Assembly (NCBI GenBank): GCA_024653575.1
Contig: JANLIJ010000161.1
Span: forward strand, 1 to 38,398
Length of the DNA: 38,398 bases
Reading direction: 5' to 3'
DNA from: Candidatus Kaiserbacteria bacterium
GTDB taxonomy: Bacteria; Patescibacteriota; Minisyncoccia; Phycocordibacterales; UBA918
Shown: piece after piece, positions 3 through 14,159 of the stretch
Layout: the number at the start of each line of letters is the position of its first letter
How positions within the stretch are numbered: position 1 is the stretch's first letter
The notes under the pieces: model-generated
Seen by the model: only the letters and a program-made list of their open reading frames with translations
Database searches by the model: none
Told to the model about the DNA's origin: nothing
Program-made: the position numbers and the translations under genes

Positions 3-3000
3 TTTGATATAACGCAGAGCCCACTCGACATTACAGGAGTTTCGACGACAACCTATAACAATCTCTGTCTCAGGGCAACACTCTCGACAACAAATTCGAG
101 CATTCCAAGTCTCGACGACTGGACGCTCTCTTGGGAGCGGGAGCCATACCTCATACAGGCAGATTATCGTTGGTATGCAAACTCAACATCAACAACACCA
201 ACAGACCCTTGGCCTGTCGGCGCCGTTGACGTTGATGAAGATGAAGCAATTATTACTGCGTCTCCAGGGCTTGGTTCTGTCCTTCGTCTCCGTATGAGTA
301 TTCACGATGAAAACGTAGCGCTCTCAACATCAACCTCTGCATTTAAATTACAGTATGCTTCAAGTACCGATTGTACTGTTGCAACATGGAGTGATGTGGG
401 AGCTATTGGTTCATCAAGTCCAGAATGGCGTGGCTACAATAATGCGGGCATATCCGATGGTGTGACGCTCTCTTCACTCCTTCTCTCCACAACGACTGTG
501 TTGGGGACGTATGAGGAAGCAAATAGCTCAGCGCTCAATCCAAATATAGTTGGTGTAGGAAATGACGTTGAATTTGACTGGGTGCTGGAACACAATGGTC
601 TTGCGGGTACGCAGTATTGTTTTAGGGCAGTTACCTCGGATGGGGTTGAGTTAAATGAATACACAAACTATCCAACACTTACCACAAATGCGAGCCCAAA
701 TCAGCCAACACTTTCAACATTGTTTGATAACGAGAAGACTGCAACGGTGACACCAAATTTCCAATTCTCCGCATCAGACCCTGAGGGAGAGGATCTCTCG
801 TATCAAATACAAATTGATAATGATTATGCCTTTGACTCGACTGTTGCTGACAGAAATACCGTTGATGACGGAACTATGTTTGAAAACCTTGCTACTCCAG
901 CTGACAAAGACCCGTTCAATACCGGTGAGACAATTGAGTTCAGACTATCCTCAGCACTTACTAATGGTGTGACATATTATTGGCGTGTGCGCTCGAAGGA
1001 CCCGAACGGATCAGGTGCGTGGGGAAGTTGGTCTCAGATACGAAGTTTCACTATTGATACTGGACTCACCGCAAGTGCATGGTTCCAGACAACTGATGAG
1101 CAATTTGATACTGATTCGCTTGAAGATACAGAAACAAGTGTTGCTGAGTCTGTCTCACTTTCGGGTGGGTTCACTACGGGTACAACGACCGGTACTGAAG
1201 TTCGTTTCGATTGGGGAACATCAGGTAACGCATGGGACTCATTTACCTTCACTGATGTAGAGGCCTCAAGTGATCTTAAGTATAGAATTCAGTATTACGA
1301 AAATGAAGTGTGGGCAGACATTCCTGATACAGACCTTCCAGGTAACTCGACTGGGTTCGACACTTCCCCCGTAAATCTTCTTGGGTTGGATACAGCGACA
1401 TATAACACGATACGAGTCGTTGCGGTGTTTACCGATGCGGGAGCATCACCGGTACTTCAGGAATGGACTATATATTGGGGTTATAAAATACTTCCTCCCG
1501 ATATCAATATGCTGTTCCCCAATGAGCGACAGGCAACTACAACGCCAGTTCTTGAATTCTTTACCAGTGACCCTCAGGGAGATACGCTCGTGTATCAGGT
1601 GCAGTGGTCAACGACATACAATTTCACAGCGTCAACAACAAGAACCTCAAGTTCAAGTAGTGGTTTCGCAAACATAACGACACCGGCAGATACGAGTCCA
1701 TTTAATTCAGGTGAGCTTATTCAGTACACAATACAGCCAGGGGATGCGCTCACGGACAATGTCACATATTGGTGGCGCGTGCGTGCCGTCGACCCCTTAG
1801 GTTCAAATAATTATTCTGCGTTCACTGACCCACAGAGTTTTACCGTGAGCTCAACGACAAATGTCTCAACATGGTTCCAGACAACGAGTGAGCAGTTTTT
1901 GACTGATTCGCTATCAGGAATAACAACTCTTGCGCAGTCAGCAACTGTCGCAACAACTGCAATTGAGTCGCTCGTTGGGTACGCAGAGGGCACTGCGCCC
2001 GAGCCACGATATAGATTGTGGGATGGTACAGTCTGGGGGTCAGAATTGCAGGCACTCTCCGTAGGCTCAGCAATTACATGGCTTTCAACAAAACCGGGTG
2101 AGACACGAGAAGAATATTTACTCGGGACACTTGGCACAGACGGTGACGTAAATATTCAGGTGTATCAAAATGGGTCGTGGGGAAATTTGCAGGAGATTAC
2201 CACCGGTGTCCCGAACACAACTGCACGCGGGTTTGATATTGCATACGAAAATGTCTCAGGTGATGCAATGGTTGTTTCCTGTGACGGTGACGCTGACCCT
2301 GTATATTACATTTGGGATGGTGCGTGGACACTTGGAGGGACTATCAATCTCAATTCATCAAACAACTGTACGTGGATTCGTCTCATGTCAGACCCAGTCT
2401 CAGATGAGATAATCCTTATGGCTCGGGACAGCAGTGGTCTCTACTATGAACTCTTCGTGTGGAGTGGTTCGTCATGGGGCAACAGTACAACACTTGGTTC
2501 TATGAATGAGGTTGTACACGAGGGGGTTACCGGCTCGTATGAGGAAAGTGGTGCTCAAGCGGTGGTTGTTGCGTCAAATGGTATTAATGCGAGTTTCGTC
2601 TGGAAGGCGTGGGACGGCGCAGTGTGGAGTGCGACGACTACTGTTGCACTCGGTGATGACTTTGAATCGGGAGCACTCGTCTCAGATGTTGGGTCTGATA
2701 ACATGGCGCTCTGTTACGTTGACGAGGACAATGACATCGGTGCGGTACGGTGGACAGGGGCAGGATTTGTCGCCACCGTTGAACTAGAGACAGCGTGGGC
2801 TGCGGGAAGTACGGTAAAAAATGATCGCCCCGTCGATTGTCTCTTTGAGGTTGGTGGAGCTCGTGACGGGTATATTATGGTTGCCTATAGCGACACCACA
2901 AATGTTCGCTATCGGGTTTGGGATGGTGCTGTGTGGGTTGCTGAGGCGAGCGTTTCAACAATTCAGGACTCTGCACGTGTACAACTTCGTCGCACATTTG

Positions 3001-6000
3001 CAAACCTCCCACAGCTTGTTGCGTACGATATGACCAACGACCGCTACGATTATTCAAGCTGGAACGGGGCCACGTGGAGCGTATTTCAAAGTCTTGAGAC
3101 AAACGGCGTCTCAGGAGCGTACCCATACAAAGAGCCGTTCATGATTGCGCCACGCAACCCCGGCTCGACAGGTACCATTGTCGGGAATCCAGGGATTGCC
3201 TTTTACGACGGGGCTGGTCCATATTGGCAGGAACTCAATTGGACTGACTCAGAGCCAAGTGGTTCAACGATTTTGTATCAAGTTGAGTACTATGATGGTG
3301 TTTCGTGGGAACTTGTTCCAGATTCACTCATCCCTAACAATTCCGTCGGTACATCGACTGGCCCTATCAGTCTCATAAATGTATTGCCTGTCTCGACATA
3401 CAATATGATACGTCCCGTTGCCAATCTCAGTTGTAATCTGGGGACCTGTCCGACACTCAGCGACTGGACACTCACATGGTCAGCGGGTATTACTGTCTCA
3501 GGAACAGCGCAACAGTACGATCAATCCGCGAACCTCACCTCCGGAACTGTGGCAGTCGCCATAAATGGTGCGCTTCAAGTGGGAAGAACAGGCACTATTT
3601 CAGGTGGAACGTGGTCTATTGCGAACGTCAACGCTGCTCCTGGGGATGTAATTACAGTATTTATTTCTGGTGTTGCCGATACAAACGAAGCCGTTGCAAA
3701 GGCTCGATATGATGGAGTAGGAGACATGAGTGGGCTCAGACTCTATGAACGACATGTCACCATCGGTTCAAATGATGCGACATCAACACCGTTCACCAAT
3801 ACAGACCTTGGACTGTATGATTACTCAAATAATGAGGACCTATTCTTCAATGCTACAGGAACAGCACTTTCGACGTGCGTTGAGTCTGGCTGTGCTGATG
3901 CAGAGCTTTACATAATGGCGAGTACCACGTATGCCCCTTCAGGTTCACTGACGCTTCATGATATCGAGAACAACGGTACCCTCATTGCTCAAGGAAATAC
4001 GCTCACCGTCTCGGGAAGTTGGGACAATAATGGAACGACGACGATGGGTACATCTACGGTTATATTCACTGCGACATCAACTACAGAGACTATCGATGGT
4101 ACTGGTTCGATTACAAATGCTTTCTACAACGTTACCTTTGGTAACGGAGCTACTACCGCAACATGGACACCGCTCAGTACGCTTGATATCGATAACAACC
4201 TTACTGTCTCAAACGGAACTCTCTCTCGAGATGGGGTGCAAATAACTGTTGGAGGAAATCTTACAACAGGCGCTTCAGGATTCTGGAGCGGTTCTGCAAC
4301 GACAACCTTTGATGGGACAGGAACAAAGAATTGGTCTGACAGCAATGCGATACTTCAGAATGTTGGTAATGTTCATGTCGATGGCACTTCAAAGACAATC
4401 CAACTCACGGGGAATGTGAAAGCACAAAGTGTCACCATCGGTGCAGATGATATTCTTGATGTATCAACGGGGAACTTTGACATAACGGTACTCACTGATT
4501 GGATAAATAACAACACATTTGTTCCTCGAGCAGGCGAGGTCATTTTTGGAGCGACAACGACAAACAGAATAATTACTGCAGGGGGTGACGCATTTTATGA
4601 CCTCACTTTCAATGGAGTGGGCGGTTCGTGGTCCTTTACTGAGGCTGACCTTTCCGTTACAAATGATTTCAGGGTTTCTACGGGAACAGTGACAATGCCG
4701 ACAGGGACAACAACGCTCTCTGGCTCATGGAATTCAGTTGGCGGAACGTTTGCACATAATAATAGTACGCTCCTCATGACCTCAGGTGGTGTAGAAACAA
4801 TTTCTGCGAGCGGAACGCCATTTACCAATAATTTCTACACGCTCGTTTTCAATGGTTTGGGTAGCTGGTCATTCCTTGATACGAGTGCAACAACCTCAAA
4901 TGATTTCCGTATTCAGCAGGGAACAGTCGTGCTCCCACAGACAACACTCTCTGTCTCGGGGAACTTTATGAACACGGGAGGCACCTTCACGCATAACAGT
5001 GGTACCGTTGCATTTACAGGGACAGGAGCAAGAGTTATCGATACAAATGCATCATTCAACAACGTTTTGTTTGGAGGTAGTGGCTCATGGTCATTCTTTG
5101 ATACATCGGTGACGGTACTCGGTTCGTTTGTTGCAACAAACGGTACCGTGACACTGCCTTCCTCCACACTGACTCTTGGCGGTTCGCTCGTAAACACTGC
5201 TGTCATAAACCACAATTCGGGAACAGTTCTTTTCAACTCGAGCGATACAGGAGAAACGATAAATCTCGGCAACTCACCTCTGTACAATGCAATATTTAAC
5301 AGTACTGGAGGAGGGTGGACCATCACAGCACCTGCCACGACAACAAACAACTTTAGCCTGAGTACAACATCGACATTCACACTAGCAAGTGGTCAGACAC
5401 TCGCGGTGCTAGGAACATTTACCAATAATGTTTCAAACGCCTCAACCACATGGGCGGGTTCAACACTCTCACTTGAAGCGGGTAACTACAGTATCAATAG
5501 TAAGACAAATCTAGGAGATACGTACGATACACTCCGAGTGAAGGCAAGCACCGATATTAAAATGTGGAACTCGAGTGCGTCTCTCTACGTGGTGGATGGT
5601 ACCGGTTCGCTCTACTCGCAGGACCATGCAGGGGTCGATGGGGTCCTCTACATCTTCGGTGCGTATGAAAGAATAAGTGGAAATGAATACTGGAGCTACG
5701 CAACTGACTTTGATGGGACTGCGCTCGGAGGAGGCTCACGACAGGTTGATGTGCGTTTTGCAGGTGGAGCGAGCGCTTCATTTACCGATGCCACACTCCA
5801 AATTCTCGGAACCGCAGTTTCCACAACTACAGTCGATAGACAATCAGGAGGACTCTTTGGGATTGTACTCTCCAATTCGACACTCAATGCACAGTATTAC
5901 GACATACGACATCAAAATGAATTAGGTTTACGACTTCTTAATGGTACTACTATTACTTCACTTGCGAATGGCCACTTTACTGTAGATGCAATTGGAGGTT

Positions 6001-9000
6001 CTGCCATTACTGCTTCAAGTAGTACGATTGATTTAAATCCTGGTTTGCAAATTTACAATGTACAATTTGATACTGCGGTAGGTGCTTTAAGTGATCTCAC
6101 AACGGGAGACGGAGAAAACACATTTATTTTCTTTGATGACTTTAATGATGGTTCTATTAATACATCAAAGTGGACTAAAGATGTCGAGCTTGGCTCTATC
6201 ACAGAGACAGGTGGGTATCTACGTGCTGGGGGTGGTATTGCGTCAGGGAATTACGGGCATGTGTCACTTGGTTCTGAAGTTGGCTATGCAAGTTTCTTGG
6301 ACAACTCTGTAGTATGGAGAGCTCGAAACTCAACAAATGGTATTGGTGAACTTGTATTTAGGGGTGACTATGGAACCAATAGAGGATATAAAGCTCGCTT
6401 TGATCAACGGGTTGGGACAAATGGTAACGCATTTCTTGAAACACCATATTCTGGTTGGACTATCTCCAACGGTACCGGTACTTGTACATCAGACAGTTTA
6501 GAGCCAGTAGCAGACCAGTGGTATCGATATGAAGTTACTGCAAGTAGTACAAACTTCATAATGTACAGAGATGGTGCTTCAATGCGAAATTGTACTGACA
6601 ATACATTTGCTCTCGCCGGAGAAATTGCACTTCAAAACCACTATGGTAGTTACACTGATTATGATTGGGTGGGTGTGCGTCCTTTTGTGACACCAGCTCC
6701 GACTAGTACTTCATGGGGTGTCGAAGAAACTGTACGTACTGGACTCTATAGAGAATCACATGTGGTAACAGGTTCTATAATAGGAGCACAAACTGATTAT
6801 GTGCTTCCGATTACAGTAAATTATGGAGCGGGTACAGATGCTGGCTCAACTATGTACTGTGACAGCCTTTGTAACACAAACTTCTCTGATGTTCGGTTTA
6901 CAAATCAAGATGGTAGTCCACTCAGTTATTGGCGAGATGAATCATTTGCAACATCGAGTACTGCTACATTTTGGGTAAAGTTTGACAGTATACCTGCTTC
7001 ACCAGCAACAACGAGTATTTATGCATACTATGGGGATGTCTCTGGATATAACGTCACTCAATCAGACGGCGCTCCAACTTCATATTGGTGGTTCCGTTCA
7101 TCATTGGGGGATATTGATGGGGAATCGTATGATAATGATACCGGCAACCCAGGTTCAATACGTTGGGATGATAGTGCGCTTACCATAAATGTATCGGGTA
7201 CGGTATATAGCGATGATGGTGTAACTCCAATGAGTGGTCCAACATGTAATGATAGTACACAAAATATTCGTATTGTTGTAGAAGGTGGAAGTTCGTATAC
7301 AGGAGACTGTGCTTCAGCTGATGGCACTTTCAGTATCCCTGGAGTTGTGATTGTGGGTGATCCTGTGGTGACTGCGTATCTGGATACAAACGGTGGGGCA
7401 AAGGGGACTACGGTAACACGTACACCAACAGCTGATATAACTGACTTAGATATTCATCAGAATCGAGTCATTACACGCCACGAGGATACGGCACCATTGA
7501 ATATTCTTAATATGGCAGTATACGACTTTGATAATGATAGTGATATCCGGTTTACTGCAGCTACTGGTACACTCACCGTACTTTCTGGCTCTGAGTTACA
7601 CATCGCATCGACCACTACCTTCGCACCTGTGGGAGATATAACCATCAATGCAAATGCGTCGGGGACTGCGTCTGACGGCTCACTCCACCTTGCGCGCAAC
7701 GCCATACTTACTGGATATGCAACTTCGACATATACGATTGGGGGTAGTTTCACCATGGACGAGGGCGCGGTATTCTCCCCAGCTTCGACAACGGTTGTTA
7801 TGAATGCAACAACGACCGGCAAGACAATCACAACGACCGCTTCACAGGAAATATCATTCAGTACACTTGAGTTCAATGGTGCGGGCGGTGGATGGAATAT
7901 CAATGGTGACGTCCGAGCGTATGAGAATATGCTCGTGACACAGGGAACTGTGTCGGGGACTGCTGATGTAACGGTGGTGAACGGTTCTCTTATAGGAGAC
8001 GGTGTGCTTTCGATGGGGGGTGGTACGACAACAATCAACAGTTCAAATACGCTCGGGGGCGCAACAGCCTGGACGTTTGCGAATCTTGTTCTCGGTAATG
8101 CAAGTCTGGTAGGGACGACAACACCTTCAAGTAATGCAACGACAACCATCCTTGGGAAACTCACCATCAGTACCGCACACTTCCTACATGCAGGTGGTTC
8201 ACTCTGGAATTTCGCGGGAACGGGGAACGTATTTACAGAAAATGGAACCTTTATCGAAGGGACAAGTACTGTGCGATACAGCGGTACTGGTGCTACAAAT
8301 ATCCTCAGCACTACGTACCACAATCTTGACCTTAAAGCGCAGGGTGGCTCACCAACATATACAGCCGTAGGTTTGGGCATCGTCGTAAGCAACAATGCCG
8401 TAATCGGAAATGGGACGACGGTGACTTTTGACACCAGTGACCCCGCGCTCGATGTCAATGGTAATCTCTCCATTGAGACGGGAGGTACATTCATTGGAAG
8501 TGGAAGCGCGTCGACGACTATTGCGGGCGATTGGGACAACAATGGCACCTTTACTGCAAGTGGAGGAACCATTGTGTTTGATGGGGCCAGTGCATCAAAT
8601 ATTTATGCAGGGAACTCATCTTTCAGCAACGTGCGATTCAATGGCATAGGAACATTCACGGTTGCAGAGCACGCAACTGCAACAGTGTCACTTATGCTCC
8701 GAAATGCAGGCTCGTTTACACTCTCAAGTGGGCAGACACTTGCGGTGGATGGTACATTCACCAATGAAATTGGTGGAGCTGGCACTACATGGACAGGAAG
8801 CACACTCTCGCTCTACGGTGGTGGTAATTATGCAATTAACGCGTCAACAACCAGTGATATCTATAATGTATTGAACGTTCGCACAAATACACAGATTCGC
8901 ATGTGGAACAGTAGCGCAAGTACGTACGACGTACATACTTCTGGCTCGCTCTACTCACAGGATCATGCAAATGTAACTGGTGATTTGTATATCTTCGGTG

Positions 9001-12000
9001 CGTACACAAAGAGCGCGGGGACTGATTACTGGAGTCACGCAACTGATTTTGACGGTTCCATTCTTGGTTCTCCACGAAACGTGGATGTGTATGTTGCGGG
9101 TGGCGGAAGCATCCTCTATACGGGGGGAGGACTCTCGGTTGTTGGTGACGCAAGCGCTAGTACAACGATACAAAATCAGGGAAGCGGAACGTATACATTC
9201 CGTATTGGTGGCAATGCATCGACGACGTGGTCATATTACCAAATCAGCAACACTGACTCTTCTGGACTCGTGTTCAGCGGTACACCGACAGTCGTGACAC
9301 TCTCACACGGTGATTTCGATGTCACACAGAACTCAGGTACCGCACTCACGGTGGGTGGTACAGTTATGACACAAAATCCTGCAAGGACATTTACAAATAA
9401 TTCCTTTGCAACATCGACAGGTGTCGGTCCTGCGTATAACGTCACTGCAACGGGTACGACTGTTAGCTCGTGGAGATTTACAAACCATACAGGTACCATT
9501 GATGGTGAAGCGTTTGACGTAGACCCAACGGGTGATCCGGGGTATGTCGTGTGGGATGACTCCGCTGCAAACATCACCGTCTCTGGTATTGTGTATAGTG
9601 ATGAAGGGACTACTCCAATGGGTGCTTCAGTCTGCGATGGCGGAACACAGAGTATTCATCTTCGAGTAGGCGGACTCACTTCATATACTGGTTCCTGTAA
9701 CGGTTCGGGAGCATACTCAATTTCAGGCGTTCTGTATAGTCCTGGAGATTCTCTCATTGTCTATATCGATGGGGAAACAGAGAAAGCCGCGACCGTTACT
9801 GAAGATCCTATTTCAAGCATCGGCAACATGGACCTCTACGAAAATAGAGTCATTGTGCGTCACGAGGGGACTGACCCACTCTCGATAGTTGATATGTCTC
9901 TCTGGGATTCTTCGGATGATGCTGATATTCCATTTACTGCAGTGGATGGGTCTCCAGACACATTGACAGTCCCTGCAAACCGTAAACTTATTGTGTGGGG
10001 GAGTAAGGAATTTGAGCCGAACGGTAACGTAACCGTTTCTGGTGGTGGTGGAGGTTCGGCGTATGACGGTACGCTTGAGCTCTATTCAAGCGCAATCTTT
10101 GACGCGACTGGAAGTGAGACGCACACAATCGGAGGAAGTCTCATTGCTGGTGTTGGGGCAAGTATTGATGACGAGACTTCGACATTCACTTTCACCACAA
10201 CAGGAGGTGCTCGAACTATCGATACAAACGAGTATTCATTCTACAATGCAGTGTTTAATGGTTCAGGAAGTTGGACAATTACAAATACTGCACTTGATGT
10301 TGGTAATGACCTTACCATCACACAGGGTGCAGTAACGCTTCCAAGTGGGACAACGACCATCACCGGCACGCTCTCGGTAACTTCAGGGTCATTCAATGCA
10401 AATGGTGGAAATATGCTGTTCAACTCAGCGACAGCTGAGACAATTACTGCGAGTACCTCTGCATTCAATACACTCACCATCAATGGTGCTGGAAGCTTTG
10501 CCCTTCAAGGCACACATGCGACCGCAACCTCGCGAGTACGAATTGAAAATGGAACATTCACGAGTGTATCGGGTACATTCACGGTTGGTGAGAACTTTAT
10601 CAATGACGGTACGTTTGCCCATAACAGTGGCACCCTACGAATGACGTCTGCTGGTACGGCGGTGCTTACAGCAAGCAGTTCGGATCTTGGGAGTGTCATC
10701 TTTAGTGGAGGAGGCGCGTATTCATTTACTGATGAGGATGTTGCACTTTTGGGCTCACTGACAATTCAAAGTGGTGCAGTAGCGATGGCATCAGGTACTA
10801 TGTCTATCGGGGGGTCATTCGTAAATTCTGGAGGTACATTTACTCACGCAACTGGCACAGTCCTCTTTAATTCAAGCGATGTGGGTGAAACGATTAATTC
10901 AGGTGTGTCAACGTTCAACTCTGTTTCATTCGCAAGTGCGAGTGGCGGATGGACTATTACAAATAATGCGACAACGACAGGGAACTTCTCACTCGTGAGT
11001 GCCACTAGCTTCGCGGTAAGTTCAAGTACTCGACTTGCGGTGCAGGGTGTGTTCACCAACCTTGTGGGCGGAGGCGCAACTACGTGGACAGGGAGTACGC
11101 TCGCAATTAATTCAGGAGTCTCATATACCATAAACACGAAAACAAGTGGTGGAGATACCTACAACACGGTGCTTATCTCATCGAGTACCGCGCTCCGTGC
11201 GTGGGACAGTGCCGGTTCCATCGCCGTTATGGATGCAAACTCATCGTTCTACTCGCAGGACCATGCGGGAGTGAGTGGTTCACTCTATATCTTTGGTAAC
11301 TACGTACGAAGAACAGGTGCTGATTATTGGAGTTATGCAACTGATTTTGATGGTACGGCACTCGGGGGCTCCTCTCGTCAGGCGTTTGTTTATATGGCAA
11401 ATGGTGCAACGACAACACTTACAGGCGGTAGTCTTGATATTGTTGGAACTGCAGGTTTTGATACGACAATAAACAATCAGGGGTCAGGTACATATGGAGT
11501 GAACATTATGGGGGGTACACTCAACGCCCAGTATTATAGTTTCACAAATATGGGAGCTGAAGGTCTTACTCTATCAGGCACCACCACAATCACCTCACTT
11601 ACTGAAGGTAACTTCACGCTTGCGCAGAATGGTGGTTCGCTCATCACACTCTCATCGACAACGCTCAATCACAACGCGGGGCTTGTCGTTACTGGTGCAT
11701 CATTTGCAACGACATCTGCGATTACTGGCTATAACATAAATCTTGTTGGCACAACACCAAGTGCGTGGACGTTTGTAAGTCATACCGGCAACCTCAGTGG
11801 GGAAGCATTCGACAATGATGGGGGTGATGACTGTGGTTCTCTCAGGTGGAGTAACAGCACCTGTCTCCTTACACAGCAATCGGGATATCGGTGGAGGAAC
11901 GATGACGGGGGTGAAGGTGTCCCTAACTCTGAGTGGTTTGATTTGGATTGGGGCAAACGCAAGCGAGTTACCGTTACAAACGCTGATGCTATTGCATACA

Positions 12001-14159
12001 CAGATGCGGTTGTTAAATTGACGGTGACCTATGATGCTGATATGCAGGCTGACTTTGATGACGTGCGCTTCACGAGCAGTGATGGTGTAACACCACTTAA
12101 TCACTTTACTGAAACATATAGCGCAAGTTCACAGGCGACCGTCTGGGTGAAGGTACCAACGCTTGCCACATCGACTGATACTGAGGTCTATATGTACTAC
12201 GGCAACGGTGCAGTGAGTGACGGAAGTGCGACGAGTACGTTTGCATATATAGATACGTTTGAGGATGGAGGAATTGCAGAATATTCGGGTGACACGAGTA
12301 TCTTCGCTGTTGATGGAACATACGCGTATGAGAGAACCAATGGCCTCGATGCCACTGGAAACGAGAGTGCGAAGGCAACTGACGGTATATATAGAAATGA
12401 TGTGACGGTCTCACAGGGACAAACAATTCGCTACATGCAGTACATCAGCACCACCGCGGGGTCAGGAGATGAGACCTGTACGCTCTTTGGTGTGCAGTCA
12501 CCAGGAAGTAATAATTTAAACTATGCGGTATGTCTTGAGCTCTTCGGTACTGACCGTGTATCACTCGCAAAGGACGTTGATTACAATGACACATCGGGTA
12601 CGATTCTCGCATCGACGACGATAACGTATGCAACAGGATGGCATGAGGTTGAAATTGATTGGGCGACAGACGATTCCATTGGGGTGACCGTTTCAAGAAA
12701 TGGCACTGTCGTTGCGACAACGTCAGCGACCGATGCGTCATATACACAGGGAGGAGTTGGGTTTACATTCTGGTTCCAAAACGGAGGATGGGATATATAT
12801 TCGAGTCGTACACTTACAGCGACAACGCCAACGACAACCTTTGGGTTTGAACAGGTACCTGGTGGAGCGACATGGCTTGCGCCACTCAATACTACTGCAA
12901 CGGGTGTTGATGTCGGTGACAGTGCGCGTATCCGTTTCCTTGTTGAGAATACAGGCCTGACCGTCGCAAATCAAAATTATGAAATTGAGTTTGCGCCGAA
13001 GGGAGCTTCGCCGAGCTGTGAAGCAGTAAATTATGCGACATATGTCGAAGTACCGAACATCGCAAGCTGCGGCACGAGTGATATCTGTATGGTGTCATCC
13101 TCACAGTTTACAAATCTTGCATCGACAACAGATGTTCTGGGCGGTGCCGGCACATTCACCTACGGCCAAATTGTTGAGGATGCAAGTAACAATACGAGCA
13201 ACATCACACTTAACGATGATGAATATACGGAACTTGAGTATGTGATAACGCCTACCGTAAATGTTACTGATTCAAACTACTGTTTCAGAGTTTCAAATGA
13301 GGGGATTGACCTCGACTCATATGCTCAGGTTGCTGAGCTCGGTCTCCGATTTACACCAAATATTACCTCGCTTGTCTTTAATGACAGCAATGACATCACA
13401 CTTTTGCCAGGTACCACGACGCGCGTGTATGCGACGGGCACCGTTACTGATTTGAATGGGTACACCGATCTCGGGGCTGCAACGACTACGTTCTATCAGA
13501 ACGGTCCTGAAAATGGTGTTGGGTATGGTTGCTCGATCGATAACAACAACTGCTATCGTATGACGACGACGGGAGGTAGTTGCAGTTACACCAATTGTGG
13601 TGGTGATTCATGTGATATCGCGTGTTATGCGGACGTTTACTACCACGCGAATCCGACCGATATATTTTCGCCGGATGATGGTGATGCATGGACTGCGTAT
13701 CTTGAGGTGACTGATTTGGGTGGTGCGGTAGCAACAAATACTTCGTATTCACCTGACCTCATCACGCTTCGTGCCATCTCGATGGATAGTAGTATTGACT
13801 ACGGAGCCCTCGCAGTAAATTCTGATACAGGGGCATACAATGCAACAACGACACTTGAAAATATTGGTAATGGTAACCTCGATATTTCAATTGAAGGAAC
13901 AGATCTCACTGATGGAGGGTCATCCGCTATACCAGTGACACAGCAACACTTTGCGACATCGACATTTAGTTATAGTTCATGTGTCTATTGTAGTTCACTG
14001 GGAACTACATCAATTAACTACAAAATTGATTTGGCAAAACCTGCCTCAACAACACCATCGGTTACTGACGATATTTTCTGGGGTATTGCAATTCCATTTG
14101 GAGTCGCAGGTACACCGCATACAGGTACAAATATTTTCTACGCAATTGGAGATATATAA
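3..14159 (+). CDS. Giant (>4,700 aa) modular surface protein/adhesin, 5'-truncated: FN3-like modules, W-D-G-x-x-W propeller-like insert, three beta-helix-like super-repeats, two DUF2341-type modules, C-terminal Cys-rich + WxL-like module
   Basis: Frame 3 is open from base 3 (FDITQSPLDITG...LRLRMSIHDEN), so the ATG at 294 is internal. It has YYWRVR/YWWRVR FN3-type motifs, YSQDHA...YWS(Y/H)ATDFDG three times, FSDVRFT/FDDVRFT..WVK..YYG (DUF2341) twice, and a TAA stop ending at 14159. Confidence 0.9.
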   Translation, partial: FDITQSPLDITGVSTTTYNNLCLRATLSTTNSSIPSLDDWTLSWEREPYLIQADYRWYANSTSTTPTDPWPVGAVDVDEDEAIITASPGLGSVLRLRMSIHDENVALSTSTSAFKLQYASSTDCTVATWSDVGAIGSSSPEWRGYNNAGISDGVTLSSLLLSTTTVLGTYEEANSSALNPNIVGVGNDVEFDWVLEHNGLAGTQYCFRAVTSDGVELNEYTNYPTLTTNASPNQPTLSTLFDNEKTATVTPNFQFSASDPEGEDLSYQIQIDNDYAFDSTVADRNTVDDGTMFENLATPADKDPFNTGETIEFRLSSALTNGVTYYWRVRSKDPNGSGAWGSWSQIRSFTIDTGLTASAWFQTTDEQFDTDSLEDTETSVAESVSLSGGFTTGTTTGTEVRFDWGTSGNAWDSFTFTDVEASSDLKYRIQYYENEVWADIPDTDLPGNSTGFDTSPVNLLGLDTATYNTIRVVAVFTDAGASPVLQEWTIYWGYKILPPDINMLFPNERQATTTPVLEFFTSDPQGDTLVYQVQWSTTYNFTASTTRTSSSSSGFANITTPADTSPFNSGELIQYTIQPGDALTDNVTYWWRVRAVDPLGSNNYSAFTDPQSFTVSSTTNVSTWFQTTSEQFLTDSLSGITTLAQSATVATTAIESLVGYAEGTAPEPRYRLWDGTVWGSELQALSVGSAITWLSTKPGETREEYLLGTLGTDGDVNIQVYQNGSWGNLQEITTGVPNTTARGFDIAYENVSGDAMVVSCDGDADPVYYIWDGAWTLGGTINLNSSNNCTWIRLMSDPVSDEIILMARDSSGLYYELFVWSGSSWGNSTTLGSMNEVVHEGVTGSYEESGAQAVVVASNGINASFVWKAWDGAVWSATTTVALGDDFESGALVSDVGSDNMALCYVDEDNDIGAVRWTGAGFVATVELETAWAAGSTVKNDRPVDCLFEVGGARDGYIMVAYSDTTNVRYRVWDGAVWVAEASVSTIQDSARVQLRRTFANLPQLVAYDMTNDRYDYSSWNGATWSVFQSLETNGVSGAYPYKEPFMIAPRNPGSTGTIVGNPGIAFYDGAGPYWQELNWTDSEPSGSTILYQVEYYDGVSWELVPDSLIPNNSVGTSTGPISLINVLPVSTYNMIRPVANLSCNLGTCPTLSDWTLTWSAGITVSGTAQQYDQSANLTSGTVAVAINGALQVGRTGTISGGTWSIANVNAAPGDVITVFISGVADTNEAVAKARYDGVGDMSGLRLYERHVTIGSNDATSTPFTNTDLGLYDYSNNEDLFFNATGTALSTCVESGCADAELYIMASTTYAPSGSLTLHDIENNGTLIAQGNTLTVSGSWDNNGTTTMGTSTVIFTATSTTETIDGTGSITNAFYNVTFGNGATTATWTPLSTLDIDNNLTVSNGTLSRDGVQITVGGNLTTGASGFWSGSATTTFDGTGTKNWSDSNAILQNVGNVHVDGTSKTIQLTGNVKAQSVTIGADDILDVSTGNFDITVLTDWINNNTFVPRAGEVIFGATTTNRIITAGGDAFYDLTFNGVGGSWSFTEADLSVTNDFRVSTGTVTMPTGTTTLSGSWNSVGGTFAHNNSTLLMTSGGVETISASGTPFTNNFYTLVFNGLGSWSFLDTSATTSNDFRIQQGTVVLPQTTLSVSGNFMNTGGTFTHNSGTVAFTGTGARVIDTNASFNNVLFGGSGSWSFFDTSVTVLGSFVATNGTVTLPSSTLTLGGSLVNTAVINHNSGTVLFNSSDTGETINLGNSPLYNAIFNSTGGGWTITAPATTTNNFSLSTTSTFTLASGQTLAVLGTFTNNVSNASTTWAGSTLSLEAGNYSINSKTNLGDTYDTLRVKASTDIKMWNSSASLYVVDGTGSLYSQDHAGVDGVLYIFGAYERISGNEYWSYATDFDGTALGGGSRQVDVRFAGGASASFTDATLQILGTAVSTTTVDRQSGGLFGIVLSNSTLNAQYYDIRHQNELGLRLLNGTTITSLANGHFTVDAIGGSAITASSSTIDLNPGLQIYNVQFDTAVGALSDLTTGDGENTFIFFDDFNDGSINTSKWTKDVELGSITETGGYLRAGGGIASGNYGHVSLGSEVGYASFLDNSVVWRARNSTNGIGELVFRGDYGTNRGYKARFDQRVGTNGNAFLETPYSGWTISNGTGTCTSDSLEPVADQWYRYEVTASSTNFIMYRDGASMRNCTDNTFALAGEIALQNHYGSYTDYDWVGVRPFVTPAPTSTSWGVEETVRTGLYRESHVVTGSIIGAQTDYVLPITVNYGAGTDAGSTMYCDSLCNTNFSDVRFTNQDGSPLSYWRDESFATSSTATFWVKFDSIPASPATTSIYAYYGDVSGYNVTQSDGAPTSYWWFRSSLGDIDGESYDNDTGNPGSIRWDDSALTINVSGTVYSDDGVTPMSGPTCNDSTQNIRIVVEGGSSYTGDCASADGTFSIPGVVIVGDPVVTAYLDTNGGAKGTTVTRTPTADITDLDIHQNRVITRHEDTAPLNILNMAVYDFDNDSDIRFTAATGTLTVLSGSELHIASTTTFAPVGDITINANASGTASDGSLHLARNAILTGYATSTYTIGGSFTMDEGAVFSPASTTVVMNATTTGKTITTTASQEISFSTLEFNGAGGGWNINGDVRAYENMLVTQGTVSGTADVTVVNGSLIGDGVLSMGGGTTTINSSNTLGGATAWTFANLVLGNASLVGTTTPSSNATTTILGKLTISTAHFLHAGGSLWNFAGTGNVFTENGTFIEGTSTVRYSGTGATNILSTTYHNLDLKAQGGSPTYTAVGLGIVVSNNAVIGNGTTVTFDTSDPALDVNGNLSIETGGTFIGSGSASTTIAGDWDNNGTFTASGGTIVFDGASASNIYAGNSSFSNVRFNGIGTFTVAEHATATVSLMLRNAGSFTLSSGQTLAVDGTFTNEIGGAGTTWTGSTLSLYGGGNYAINASTTSDIYNVLNVRTNTQIRMWNSSASTYDVHTSGSLYSQDHANVTGDLYIFGAYTKSAGTDYWSHATDFDGSILGSPRNVDVYVAGGGSILYTGGGLSVVGDASASTTIQNQGSGTYTFRIGGNASTTWSYYQISNTDSSGLVFSGTPTVVTLSHGDFDVTQNSGTALTVGGTVMTQNPARTFTNNSFATSTGVGPAYNVTATGTTVSSWRFTNHTGTIDGEAFDVDPTGDPGYVVWDDSAANITVSGIVYSDEGTTPMGASVCDGGTQSIHLRVGGLTSYTGSCNGSGAYSISGVLYSPGDSLIVYIDGETEKAATVTEDPISSIGNMDLYENRVIVRHEGTDPLSIVDMSLWDSSDDADIPFTAVDGSPDTLTVPANRKLIVWGSKEFEPNGNVTVSGGGGGSAYDGTLELYSSAIFDATGSETHTIGGSLIAGVGASIDDETSTFTFTTTGGARTIDTNEYSFYNAVFNGSGSWTITNTALDVGNDLTITQGAVTLPSGTTTITGTLSVTSGSFNANGGNMLFNSATAETITASTSAFNTLTINGAGSFALQGTHATATSRVRIENGTFTSVSGTFTVGENFINDGTFAHNSGTLRMTSAGTAVLTASSSDLGSVIFSGGGAYSFTDEDVALLGSLTIQSGAVAMASGTMSIGGSFVNSGGTFTHATGTVLFNSSDVGETINSGVSTFNSVSFASASGGWTITNNATTTGNFSLVSATSFAVSSSTRLAVQGVFTNLVGGGATTWTGSTLAINSGVSYTINTKTSGGDTYNTVLISSSTALRAWDSAGSIAVMDANSSFYSQDHAGVSGSLYIFGNYVRRTGADYWSYATDFDGTALGGSSRQAFVYMANGATTTLTGGSLDIVGTAGFDTTINNQGSGTYGVNIMGGTLNAQYYSFTNMGAEGLTLSGTTTITSLTEGNFTLAQNGGSLITLSSTTLNHNAGLVVTGASFATTSAITGYNINLVGTTPSAWTFVSHTGNLSGEAFDNDGGDDCGSLRWSNSTCLLTQQSGYRWRNDDGGEGVPNSEWFDLDWGKRKRVTVTNADAIAYTDAVVKLTVTYDADMQADFDDVRFTSSDGVTPLNHFTETYSASSQATVWVKVPTLATSTDTEVYMYYGNGAVSDGSATSTFAYIDTFEDGGIAEYSGDTSIFAVDGTYAYERTNGLDATGNESAKATDGIYRNDVTVSQGQTIRYMQYISTTAGSGDETCTLFGVQSPGSNNLNYAVCLELFGTDRVSLAKDVDYNDTSGTILASTTITYATGWHEVEIDWATDDSIGVTVSRNGTVVATTSATDASYTQGGVGFTFWFQNGGWDIYSSRTLTATTPTTTFGFEQVPGGATWLAPLNTTATGVDVGDSARIRFLVENTGLTVANQNYEIEFAPKGASPSCEAVNYATYVEVPNIASCGTSDICMVSSSQFTNLASTTDVLGGAGTFTYGQIVEDASNNTSNITLNDDEYTELEYVITPTVNVTDSNYCFRVSNEGIDLDSYAQVAELGLRFTPNITSLVFNDSNDITLLPGTTTRVYATGTVTDLNGYTDLGAATTTFYQNGPENGVGYGCSIDNNNCYRMTTTGGSCSYTNCGGDSCDIACYADVYYHANPTDIFSPDDGDAWTAYLEVTDLGGAVATNTSYSPDLITLRAISMDSSIDYGALAVNSDTGAYNATTTLENIGNGNLDISIEGTDLTDGGSSAIPVTQQHFATSTFSYSSCVYCSSLGTTSINYKIDLAKPASTTPSVTDDIFWGIAIPFGVAGTPHTGTNIFYAIGDI

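Follow-up and report, generated by a model that had tools for sequence, protein, structure and literature searches.

Units that join a DUF2341 domain (Pfam PF10102) to a concanavalin A (ConA)-like lectin domain occur in Patescibacteria, DPANN archaea and other organisms, and they rank with the most frequent components of giant surface proteins in ultrasmall host-dependent bacteria and archaea. That multidomain proteins can be circularly permuted is textbook knowledge. In terms of origin, duplication followed by trimming is described for saposin/swaposin and for DNA methyltransferases (PMC3320104), and PMC11809585 surveys giant (>4000 aa) Patescibacteria proteins that carry DUF2341. The module described below comes from a 38,398-nt stretch of DNA of a Candidatus Kaiserbacteria bacterium (contig JANLIJ010000161.1, referred to throughout as the window). 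It is built from the same two families and also belongs to a giant surface protein, where it is nested in the first of three sister repeats (identified by self-BLAST) and carries its two domains in the order opposite to that of ordinary units. What is new here is a reversed, conserved cassette and a polymorphism of three states (empty, ordinary order and reversed order) at one residue-exact site, and not a new mechanism.

We refer to the DUF2341 beta-domain as A and to the lectin-like domain as B. Each was represented by a hidden Markov model (HMM) built from the window and its relatives, with 99 positions for A and 207 for B. The open reading frame (ORF) that encodes the giant protein, the insert and its parts, and the adjoining host sequence are located as follows, with amino acids numbered within the part of the ORF that lies in the window.

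3..14159, forward strand: giant surface-protein ORF, 5'-open at the window edge, 4718 aa within the window.
5109..6083, forward strand: host flank 1, the end of repeat 1 (aa 1703-2027), which ends ...LQIYNVQFDTAVG and aligns to aa 2835-3140, to aa 3580-3903 and to orthologues.
6084..7040, forward strand: the B-A insert, 319 aa (aa 2028-2346), with limits set by alignment to orthologues.
6084..6110, forward strand: N-terminal joint ALSDLTTGD, which resembles the A-to-B linker of ordinary units (compare the linkers of the relatives P0003 and P0006).
6111..6731, forward strand: domain B, a predicted ConA-like lectin or carbohydrate-binding module (CBM)-type beta-sandwich (aa 2037-2243; B HMM positions 1-207, E 6.1e-73).
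6732..6743, forward strand: B-to-A joint, 4 aa by the HMM ends, within ...WGVEETVRTGLYRESH...
6744..7040, forward strand: domain A, the DUF2341 beta-domain (aa 2248-2346; A HMM positions 4-98 of 99, E 1.9e-31).
7041..8000, forward strand: host flank 2 (aa 2347-2666), which starts SGYNVTQSDGAPTSYWWFR and aligns to aa 3145-3476 of repeat 2.

A three-way alignment of the sister repeats, together with self-BLAST, leaves approximately 320 residues unmatched in repeat 1 alone, between the motifs FDTA and GYNV. Specifically, the match of repeat 1 to its two sisters breaks off after aa 2027 and resumes at aa 2347-2349. Read in frame +3, the region contains VQFDTA at aa 2020 (nt 6060), GDGENTFIFFDDFNDG at aa 2035 (nt 6105) and PTSTSWGVEE at aa 2233, followed in the A part and flank 2 by LYRESH (aa 2248), NFSDVRFT (aa 2293), FWVK (aa 2323), IYAYYGD (aa 2339) and GYNV (aa 2348, nt 7044). 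A preliminary description of this DNA, drawn from the letters and their translations, had placed the module at 6090-7037, which is right to within a few bases, and every motif that it quoted from this copy and from a second copy near the C-terminus of the protein lies in the position and frame given there.

The order of the two domains in the insert is the reverse of the near-universal unit, in which A is followed by a 7-aa linker and then B, and the match to Pfam DUF2341 also displays this reversal. Over window positions 6000-7130 the family, for which the preliminary description had proposed a search, scores 70.8 bits against a gathering cut-off of 23.4. The match is, however, split and reversed relative to those of ordinary units: nt 6879-7085 correspond to model positions 1-66, and the piece for positions 50-82 lies some 800 nt upstream, at nt 6078-6176. 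In a genome-wide scan the two pieces score 50.5 and 29.8 bits. A single colinear match fails for the insert, whereas the ordinary copy near the C-terminus gives positions 1-75 in one piece. The model spans the middle of A (DFxDVRF), the YYG motif, the linker and the first strand of B, and it is because it crosses the A/B boundary that its match is broken and inverted here. The permutant thus marks the unit boundaries exactly and reveals a Pfam model that straddles two domains. A further difference from ordinary units is that the A domain of the insert lacks the N-terminal W..GW motif.

The rarity of the reversed order was gauged by searching 1.84 billion representatives with the 321-aa insert, which returned 4016 matches at E <= 1e-3. 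We annotated the best 150 of these along with the proteins of three further searches, for a total of 199 proteins; this set was picked by similarity to the insert and is not an unbiased census. A precedes B within 25 aa for 292 of the 306 B domains with a complete N-terminus, and the linker between them is exactly 7 aa in 217 of 238 complete pairs. The 14 exceptions consist of 11 orthologous B-A inserts and three proteins with B at the N-terminal edge, two of which begin inside an A and one of which begins with M directly at B. Tandem (A-B)n arrays are common among the best 150 representatives, and the B-to-A joints within the arrays measure 4-7 aa in 39 of 108 cases and <=10 aa in 59 of 108; the joint of the insert, at 4 aa, is of this kind. 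A literature search on DUF2341 found no paper title concerned with domain order, which is not proof of absence in print.

With respect to structure, AlphaFold2 models were built with 60-residue flanks for the B-A insert (25-row alignment) and for an insert of ordinary order at the same site in a related genome, G007 (40 rows). The predicted local distance difference test score (pLDDT) is mostly 80-94 across the B-A insert and 77-98 in nearly all 10-residue blocks of the A-B insert, as compared with 31-49 for the flanks across the two models, those of the B-A model lying below 45. The predicted template modeling scores are 0.69 (B-A) and 0.72 (A-B), values that do not show equal packing of A against B in the two orders. 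In the B-A model, B (residues 75-260) superposes on the CBM66 structure 4b1m_A with Z 18.7 and a root-mean-square deviation of 2.3 over 155 of 165 residues, and in the A-B model it does so with Z 19.1 over residues 176-373. The other fold matches of B in the B-A model include 4jqt_B (Z 18.4), 1oq1_A (Z 17.5) and 3hbk, and Foldseek adds GH16 (E 7e-9) and Emp47p. CBM66 ranks ahead of DUF1080-type domains, GH16, ERGIC-53/Emp47 and receptor-binding domains of phages. In its predicted fold, B therefore matches CBM66 (4b1m) and ConA-like domains of the DUF1080/3-keto-disaccharide-hydrolase type, at a sequence identity of 12-17%. Pfam PF06439 scores 16.5 bits on the insert, below its cut-off of 26.8.

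B thus appears from the models to be a complete ConA-like domain in both orders, with A predicted to be a separate beta-domain. Since B and A are both whole domains, the rearrangement is a circular permutation of domain order and not a permuted fold. The idea of a natural circular permutant, put forward in the preliminary description, accordingly survives with regard to the reversed order of the domains, but not in the sense of a permuted fold, B being complete on its own. The fold searches of both models are dominated by B. For the A-B model, some match rows already begin within A, at residues 86-146, a hint that strands of A extend the B sandwich. When the sequences of the Protein Data Bank were searched with an A-B profile, no relative of DUF2341 with a solved structure was found; designed SAKe proteins (E 3e-4) and a beta-glucanase (E 0.024) matched best.

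The first comparator for the insert was the ordinary copy near the C-terminus of the same protein, which the preliminary description had placed at 11934-12854.

11946..12857, forward strand: ordinary A-B unit near the C-terminus; its A spans aa 3982-4069 and its B, of a divergent lectin subtype, aa 4076-4285.

This copy carries RKRVTV at aa 3986, DFDDVRFT at aa 4017, YMYYG at aa 4063, TFAYIDTFEDG at aa 4079 and PTTTFGFEQ at aa 4276, that is, in the usual order. The A domain of the insert is 37% identical to that at aa 3982-4069 (E 2e-13). For the two B domains, BLASTP gives a weak match (25% over 120 aa, E 2e-4), and the B HMM spans the C-terminal B as well (aa 4076-4285, positions 2-206 of 207, E 8.1e-15). 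The first part of the insert is therefore homologous to the second part of the C-terminal unit, and vice versa, which is how a circular permutant is defined at the level of sequence, and the reversal first noticed between these two copies is borne out by the A-A match, by the B-B match through the HMM and by the split Pfam match alike, which place it far beyond chance. The C-terminal copy is nonetheless a poor choice of comparator because its lectin half is of a different subtype. More informative are the A-B cassettes found at the identical site in four relatives. In repeat 3 the ordinary A-B unit starts approximately 70 residues (11739-11945, aa 3913-3981) past the equivalent empty site, behind a YRWRNDDGGEG...W..DW leader.

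Relative to the permutants treated in PMC3320104, the insert is alike in that its N-terminal part matches the C-terminal part of the other protein and vice versa, and in that tandem forms exist in the family. It is unlike them in two respects: its new ends came about as joints within a loop of the host protein and not through new start and stop codons, and its halves are whole domains, perhaps from two units.

Comparison of the insertion site across paralogues and relatives reveals three states, the first of which is empty. The two sister repeats each have approximately one residue where repeat 1 carries the insert, in keeping with the few residues noted there in the preliminary description.

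9402..9443, forward strand: empty equivalent site in sister repeat 2, SFATSTGVGPAYNV.
11700..11738, forward strand: empty equivalent site in sister repeat 3, SFATTSAITGYNI.

Among 41 related genomes, both insert flanks were located in 21. By the best flank matches, flank 1 and flank 2 adjoin in 14 genomes with approximately one residue between them (...QIYRVNFSTTTA-I-SATNVTQ...), so that orthologues lacking the insert, which the preliminary description had suggested looking for, do exist. The host sequence is thus continuous without the insert in two paralogous repeats and 14 orthologues, with conserved joints, and the insert is nested. The site itself is a short stretch of repeat 1, a loop or a linker, that is rich in Ser, Thr and Ala.

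The second state is a cassette of ordinary order. At E <= 1e-20 a cassette is found in two of 21 genomes of the genus, namely the source of the window and G007. The latter (G007/P0161) has 333 residues inserted at the same point in the order A-B (...NFSTTLS-[A-B]-SGTNVT...), and A-B order at this site is seen also in the fragment P0008 and in the giant proteins P0202 and P0203. These four cassettes share with the insert of the window both the host repeat and the exact point of insertion, between ...F(S/D)T(T/A).. and ..(S/T)G.NVT... They differ from it in their opposite order, in length (333 aa in G007 versus 316-319 aa for the B-A inserts) and in an A domain that belongs to a different lineage. 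The B and A domains of G007 are 54% and 49% identical, respectively, to those of the window.

The third state, B-A, is found between the same flanks in P0152-P0160 (46-100% identical over aa 1990-2390 at 100% coverage) and in the fragment P0162, and the fragments P0165 and P0172 display the joint from flank 1 to B. The reversed order is thus kept in at least 11 orthologues. P0152, with 6562 aa, is the 90%-identity cluster representative of the giant ORF itself. In P0153-P0159 the identity to the window protein is 72-84% for B and 61-82% for A, as against 52-73% for the flanks, which suggests that the permuted module is at least as constrained as its host protein. These records also bear on the prospect of an artefact, in which a repetitive gene was misassembled in a metagenome bin. 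The source genome (approximately 1.03 Mb) is indeed fragmented into 220 contigs and the gene is internally repetitive. Nonetheless, the same in-frame order of flank 1, B, A and flank 2 recurs in 10 further cluster representatives, at 46-97% identity and with clean, conserved joints, the insert is more conserved than its flanks, and the B-A records come from four sources (NCBI, ENA, JGI and Logan). Because B-A order is present in records of four sources, we discount misassembly as having a negligible chance of being correct.

With regard to how the reversed cassette arose, trees were built of the flanks and of A and B separately. A tree of flank 1 with the insert excluded (27 rows) places G007, with its A-B cassette, as sister to nine B-A genes (support 95). 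In a 34-row version, 12 B-A and three A-B genes (including G007/P0008 and P0202) form one clade (97) together with two repeat-3 paralogues. For the A domains, whose alignment has 101 columns, those of all 10 complete B-A inserts make up one clade (99), whereas those of the four A-B inserts group with ordinary units in another clade, of 20 rows (99). The B domains of the eight main B-A inserts nest (99-100) with ordinary-unit B domains of the unrelated proteins P0003, P0006, P0010, P0163 and P0164; two further B lineages are formed by G007/P0008 and by P0160/P0162. In approximately unbiased (AU) tests, for which some groups were defined after the trees had been seen, grouping the B domains of the eight main inserts with those of G007/P0008 was rejected (p 0.0013). 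Pairwise identities show the same mismatch: the A domains closest to that of the window (49-55%) are partnered with B domains that are 30-39% like its B, and where the B of a unit is most like that of the window (52-61%), its A is 28-45% identical to the window's A. The B-A inserts of P0160 (aa 4306-4617) and P0162 (aa 464-779) branch more deeply and carry another B subtype (GxYPxIP..., as in G007 and P0005). Their A domains nonetheless group with those of the other B-A inserts, which suggests that the permuted cassette has undergone an exchange of its B.

These trees speak directly to the classical account of permutation, in which a G007-like A-B cassette was duplicated in place and then lost its first A and last B, such that both remaining domains derive from one unit. 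Duplication is the standard model for circular permutants (PMC3320104), relatives do carry A-B at the identical site, and the flank-1 tree unites G007/P0008 and P0202 with the B-A genes. This account is, however, at odds with the affiliation of the B domains with unrelated ordinary units away from the B of G007, with the well-supported split between the A domains of the two kinds of insert and with the mismatch in identities, and we consider it unlikely. Less likely again is a history in the style of fission and fusion, without a tandem stage, in which B and A arrived separately or in which an A-B cassette lost its A and then gained a foreign A behind B. Such a history would suit the different nearest relatives of A and B, as well as the variability of the site, which is found empty, with A-B of at least two types and with B-A having two B types. 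Against it, the 199 proteins contain no internal B without a preceding A except for the B-A inserts themselves, and three of three apparent lone A domains inspected precede another type of lectin. Free-standing single-domain donors were therefore not seen in this material. The array-like 4-aa joint between B and A also argues against separate arrival.

In connection with these apparent lone domains, further DUF2341 matches occur elsewhere in the giant proteins (aa 2033-2135 of the G007 protein L014 (G007:C4), aa 2870-2964 of P0156 and aa 1452-1548 of P0160), with none in the window protein. The lectin that follows them is invisible to the B HMM; by eye we take it to be LamG_3-like (...DEVR...W...EYNNQ...). 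Lone A domains were accordingly rejected as proof that A stands alone.

The reading that we favor, and hold to be moderately probable as a whole, is that of a conserved 319-aa B-A cassette of whole domains, nested in repeat 1, that originated as a slice of a tandem array and probably serves as a glycan-binding attachment module. A slice is preferred over the recutting of one unit because the B-A joint has the length of an array joint, because an A-to-B-type linker is kept ahead of the insert's B (ALSDLTTGDGENTF; compare GDTTTSNGEDTF in P0003) and because the nearest relatives of A and B differ, the last of these points being borderline. Excision from a tandem array, a suggestion already made in the preliminary description, is thus the route that fits best. 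Under this scheme, the site would once have carried an ordinary A-B cassette, which would then have been extended to, or replaced by, a possibly mixed tandem A-B-A-B. Once the A at one end and the B at the other had been deleted, the slice B(i)-A(i+1) would have remained. From then on the site would have hosted variable cassettes, with recombination in its surroundings, and one sub-lineage would later have exchanged its B.

Several observations weigh against this reading. No A-B-A or A-B-A-B intermediate was present at the site among the 10 + 53 + 13 proteins that three of the searches returned, and the joints of the insert have no direct repeats, only 10-16 nt pairs at chance level occurring inside the region. 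With all 10 inserts held as one group, the AU tests give A/B discordance only borderline support (p 0.046 and 0.036), and a common clade of the A domains from the B-A inserts and from G007/P0008 was not rejected (p 0.23), a result that counts toward in-place duplication. With respect to the host gene, P0203 falls outside the insert-bearing flank-1 clade, among genes with an empty site, and the two repeat-3 paralogues fall inside that clade. The flank-2 tree scatters the insert states, with seven changes. This conflict between the trees of flank 1 (325 residues) and flank 2 (320 residues) rules out a simple vertical history and points to recombination around the site, which blurs any single history. 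The giant gene is thus a mosaic produced by recombination, and one breakpoint lies close to where the cassette sits. In the genome G004, for example, identity to the window is 75% downstream of the site and 47% upstream.

In terms of function, the predicted fold and the genomic context suggest that the cassette is most likely a glycan-binding or attachment module, held sideways from a surface fibre in contact with a host cell or another surface. The three states indicate that this probable attachment fibre has a site where the cassette varies, and they amount to a natural experiment in which one loop tolerates both domain orders. This tolerance hints, indirectly, that the ends of the module may lie close enough together to fit a loop, as the preliminary description had supposed, and that A may pack on B alike in the two orders. 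By analogy with phage receptor-binding modules, we tentatively entertain the possibility that the loop is a dedicated, recombination-prone display site whose exchanged lectin cassettes alter host or surface specificity. The B-A form might then survive as a rigid unit with its N-terminus, C-terminus and linker on one face, pluggable at either cut. Were this so, it would offer a natural template for the design of loop-insertable binding modules. For the study of protein evolution, the locus provides a clean, recent and well-sampled permutation of domain order nested inside a host protein.

Turning to the setting, a Pfam scan of the giant ORF returns only DUF2341 (three stretches) and Ig_Rha78A_N, an Ig-like N-terminal domain, and NCBI names a relative with 80% identity over this region as a protein of a Minisyncoccia (Patescibacteria) metagenome-assembled genome. 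The GC content is 0.41-0.43 in the insert and 0.45-0.50 in neighboring 300-nt bins of the giant gene (window 6000-7199); as an argument for foreign origin of the insert, this difference was set aside as too weak. Downstream of the giant ORF, window positions 14254-38396 encode an FN3 protein, an ABC ATPase with a MacB/FtsX permease, a glycine-rich/CARDB protein and a dockerin/Ig-like protein, as well as several ORFs with no Pfam match. These FN3, Ig-like, dockerin, glycine-rich and MacB-type ABC transporter genes make a surface-protein island likely, and the giant ORF together with its downstream neighbors looks like one. At the far end of the window lies a second large ORF (34065-38396; 1444 aa, 3'-open), also with no Pfam match.

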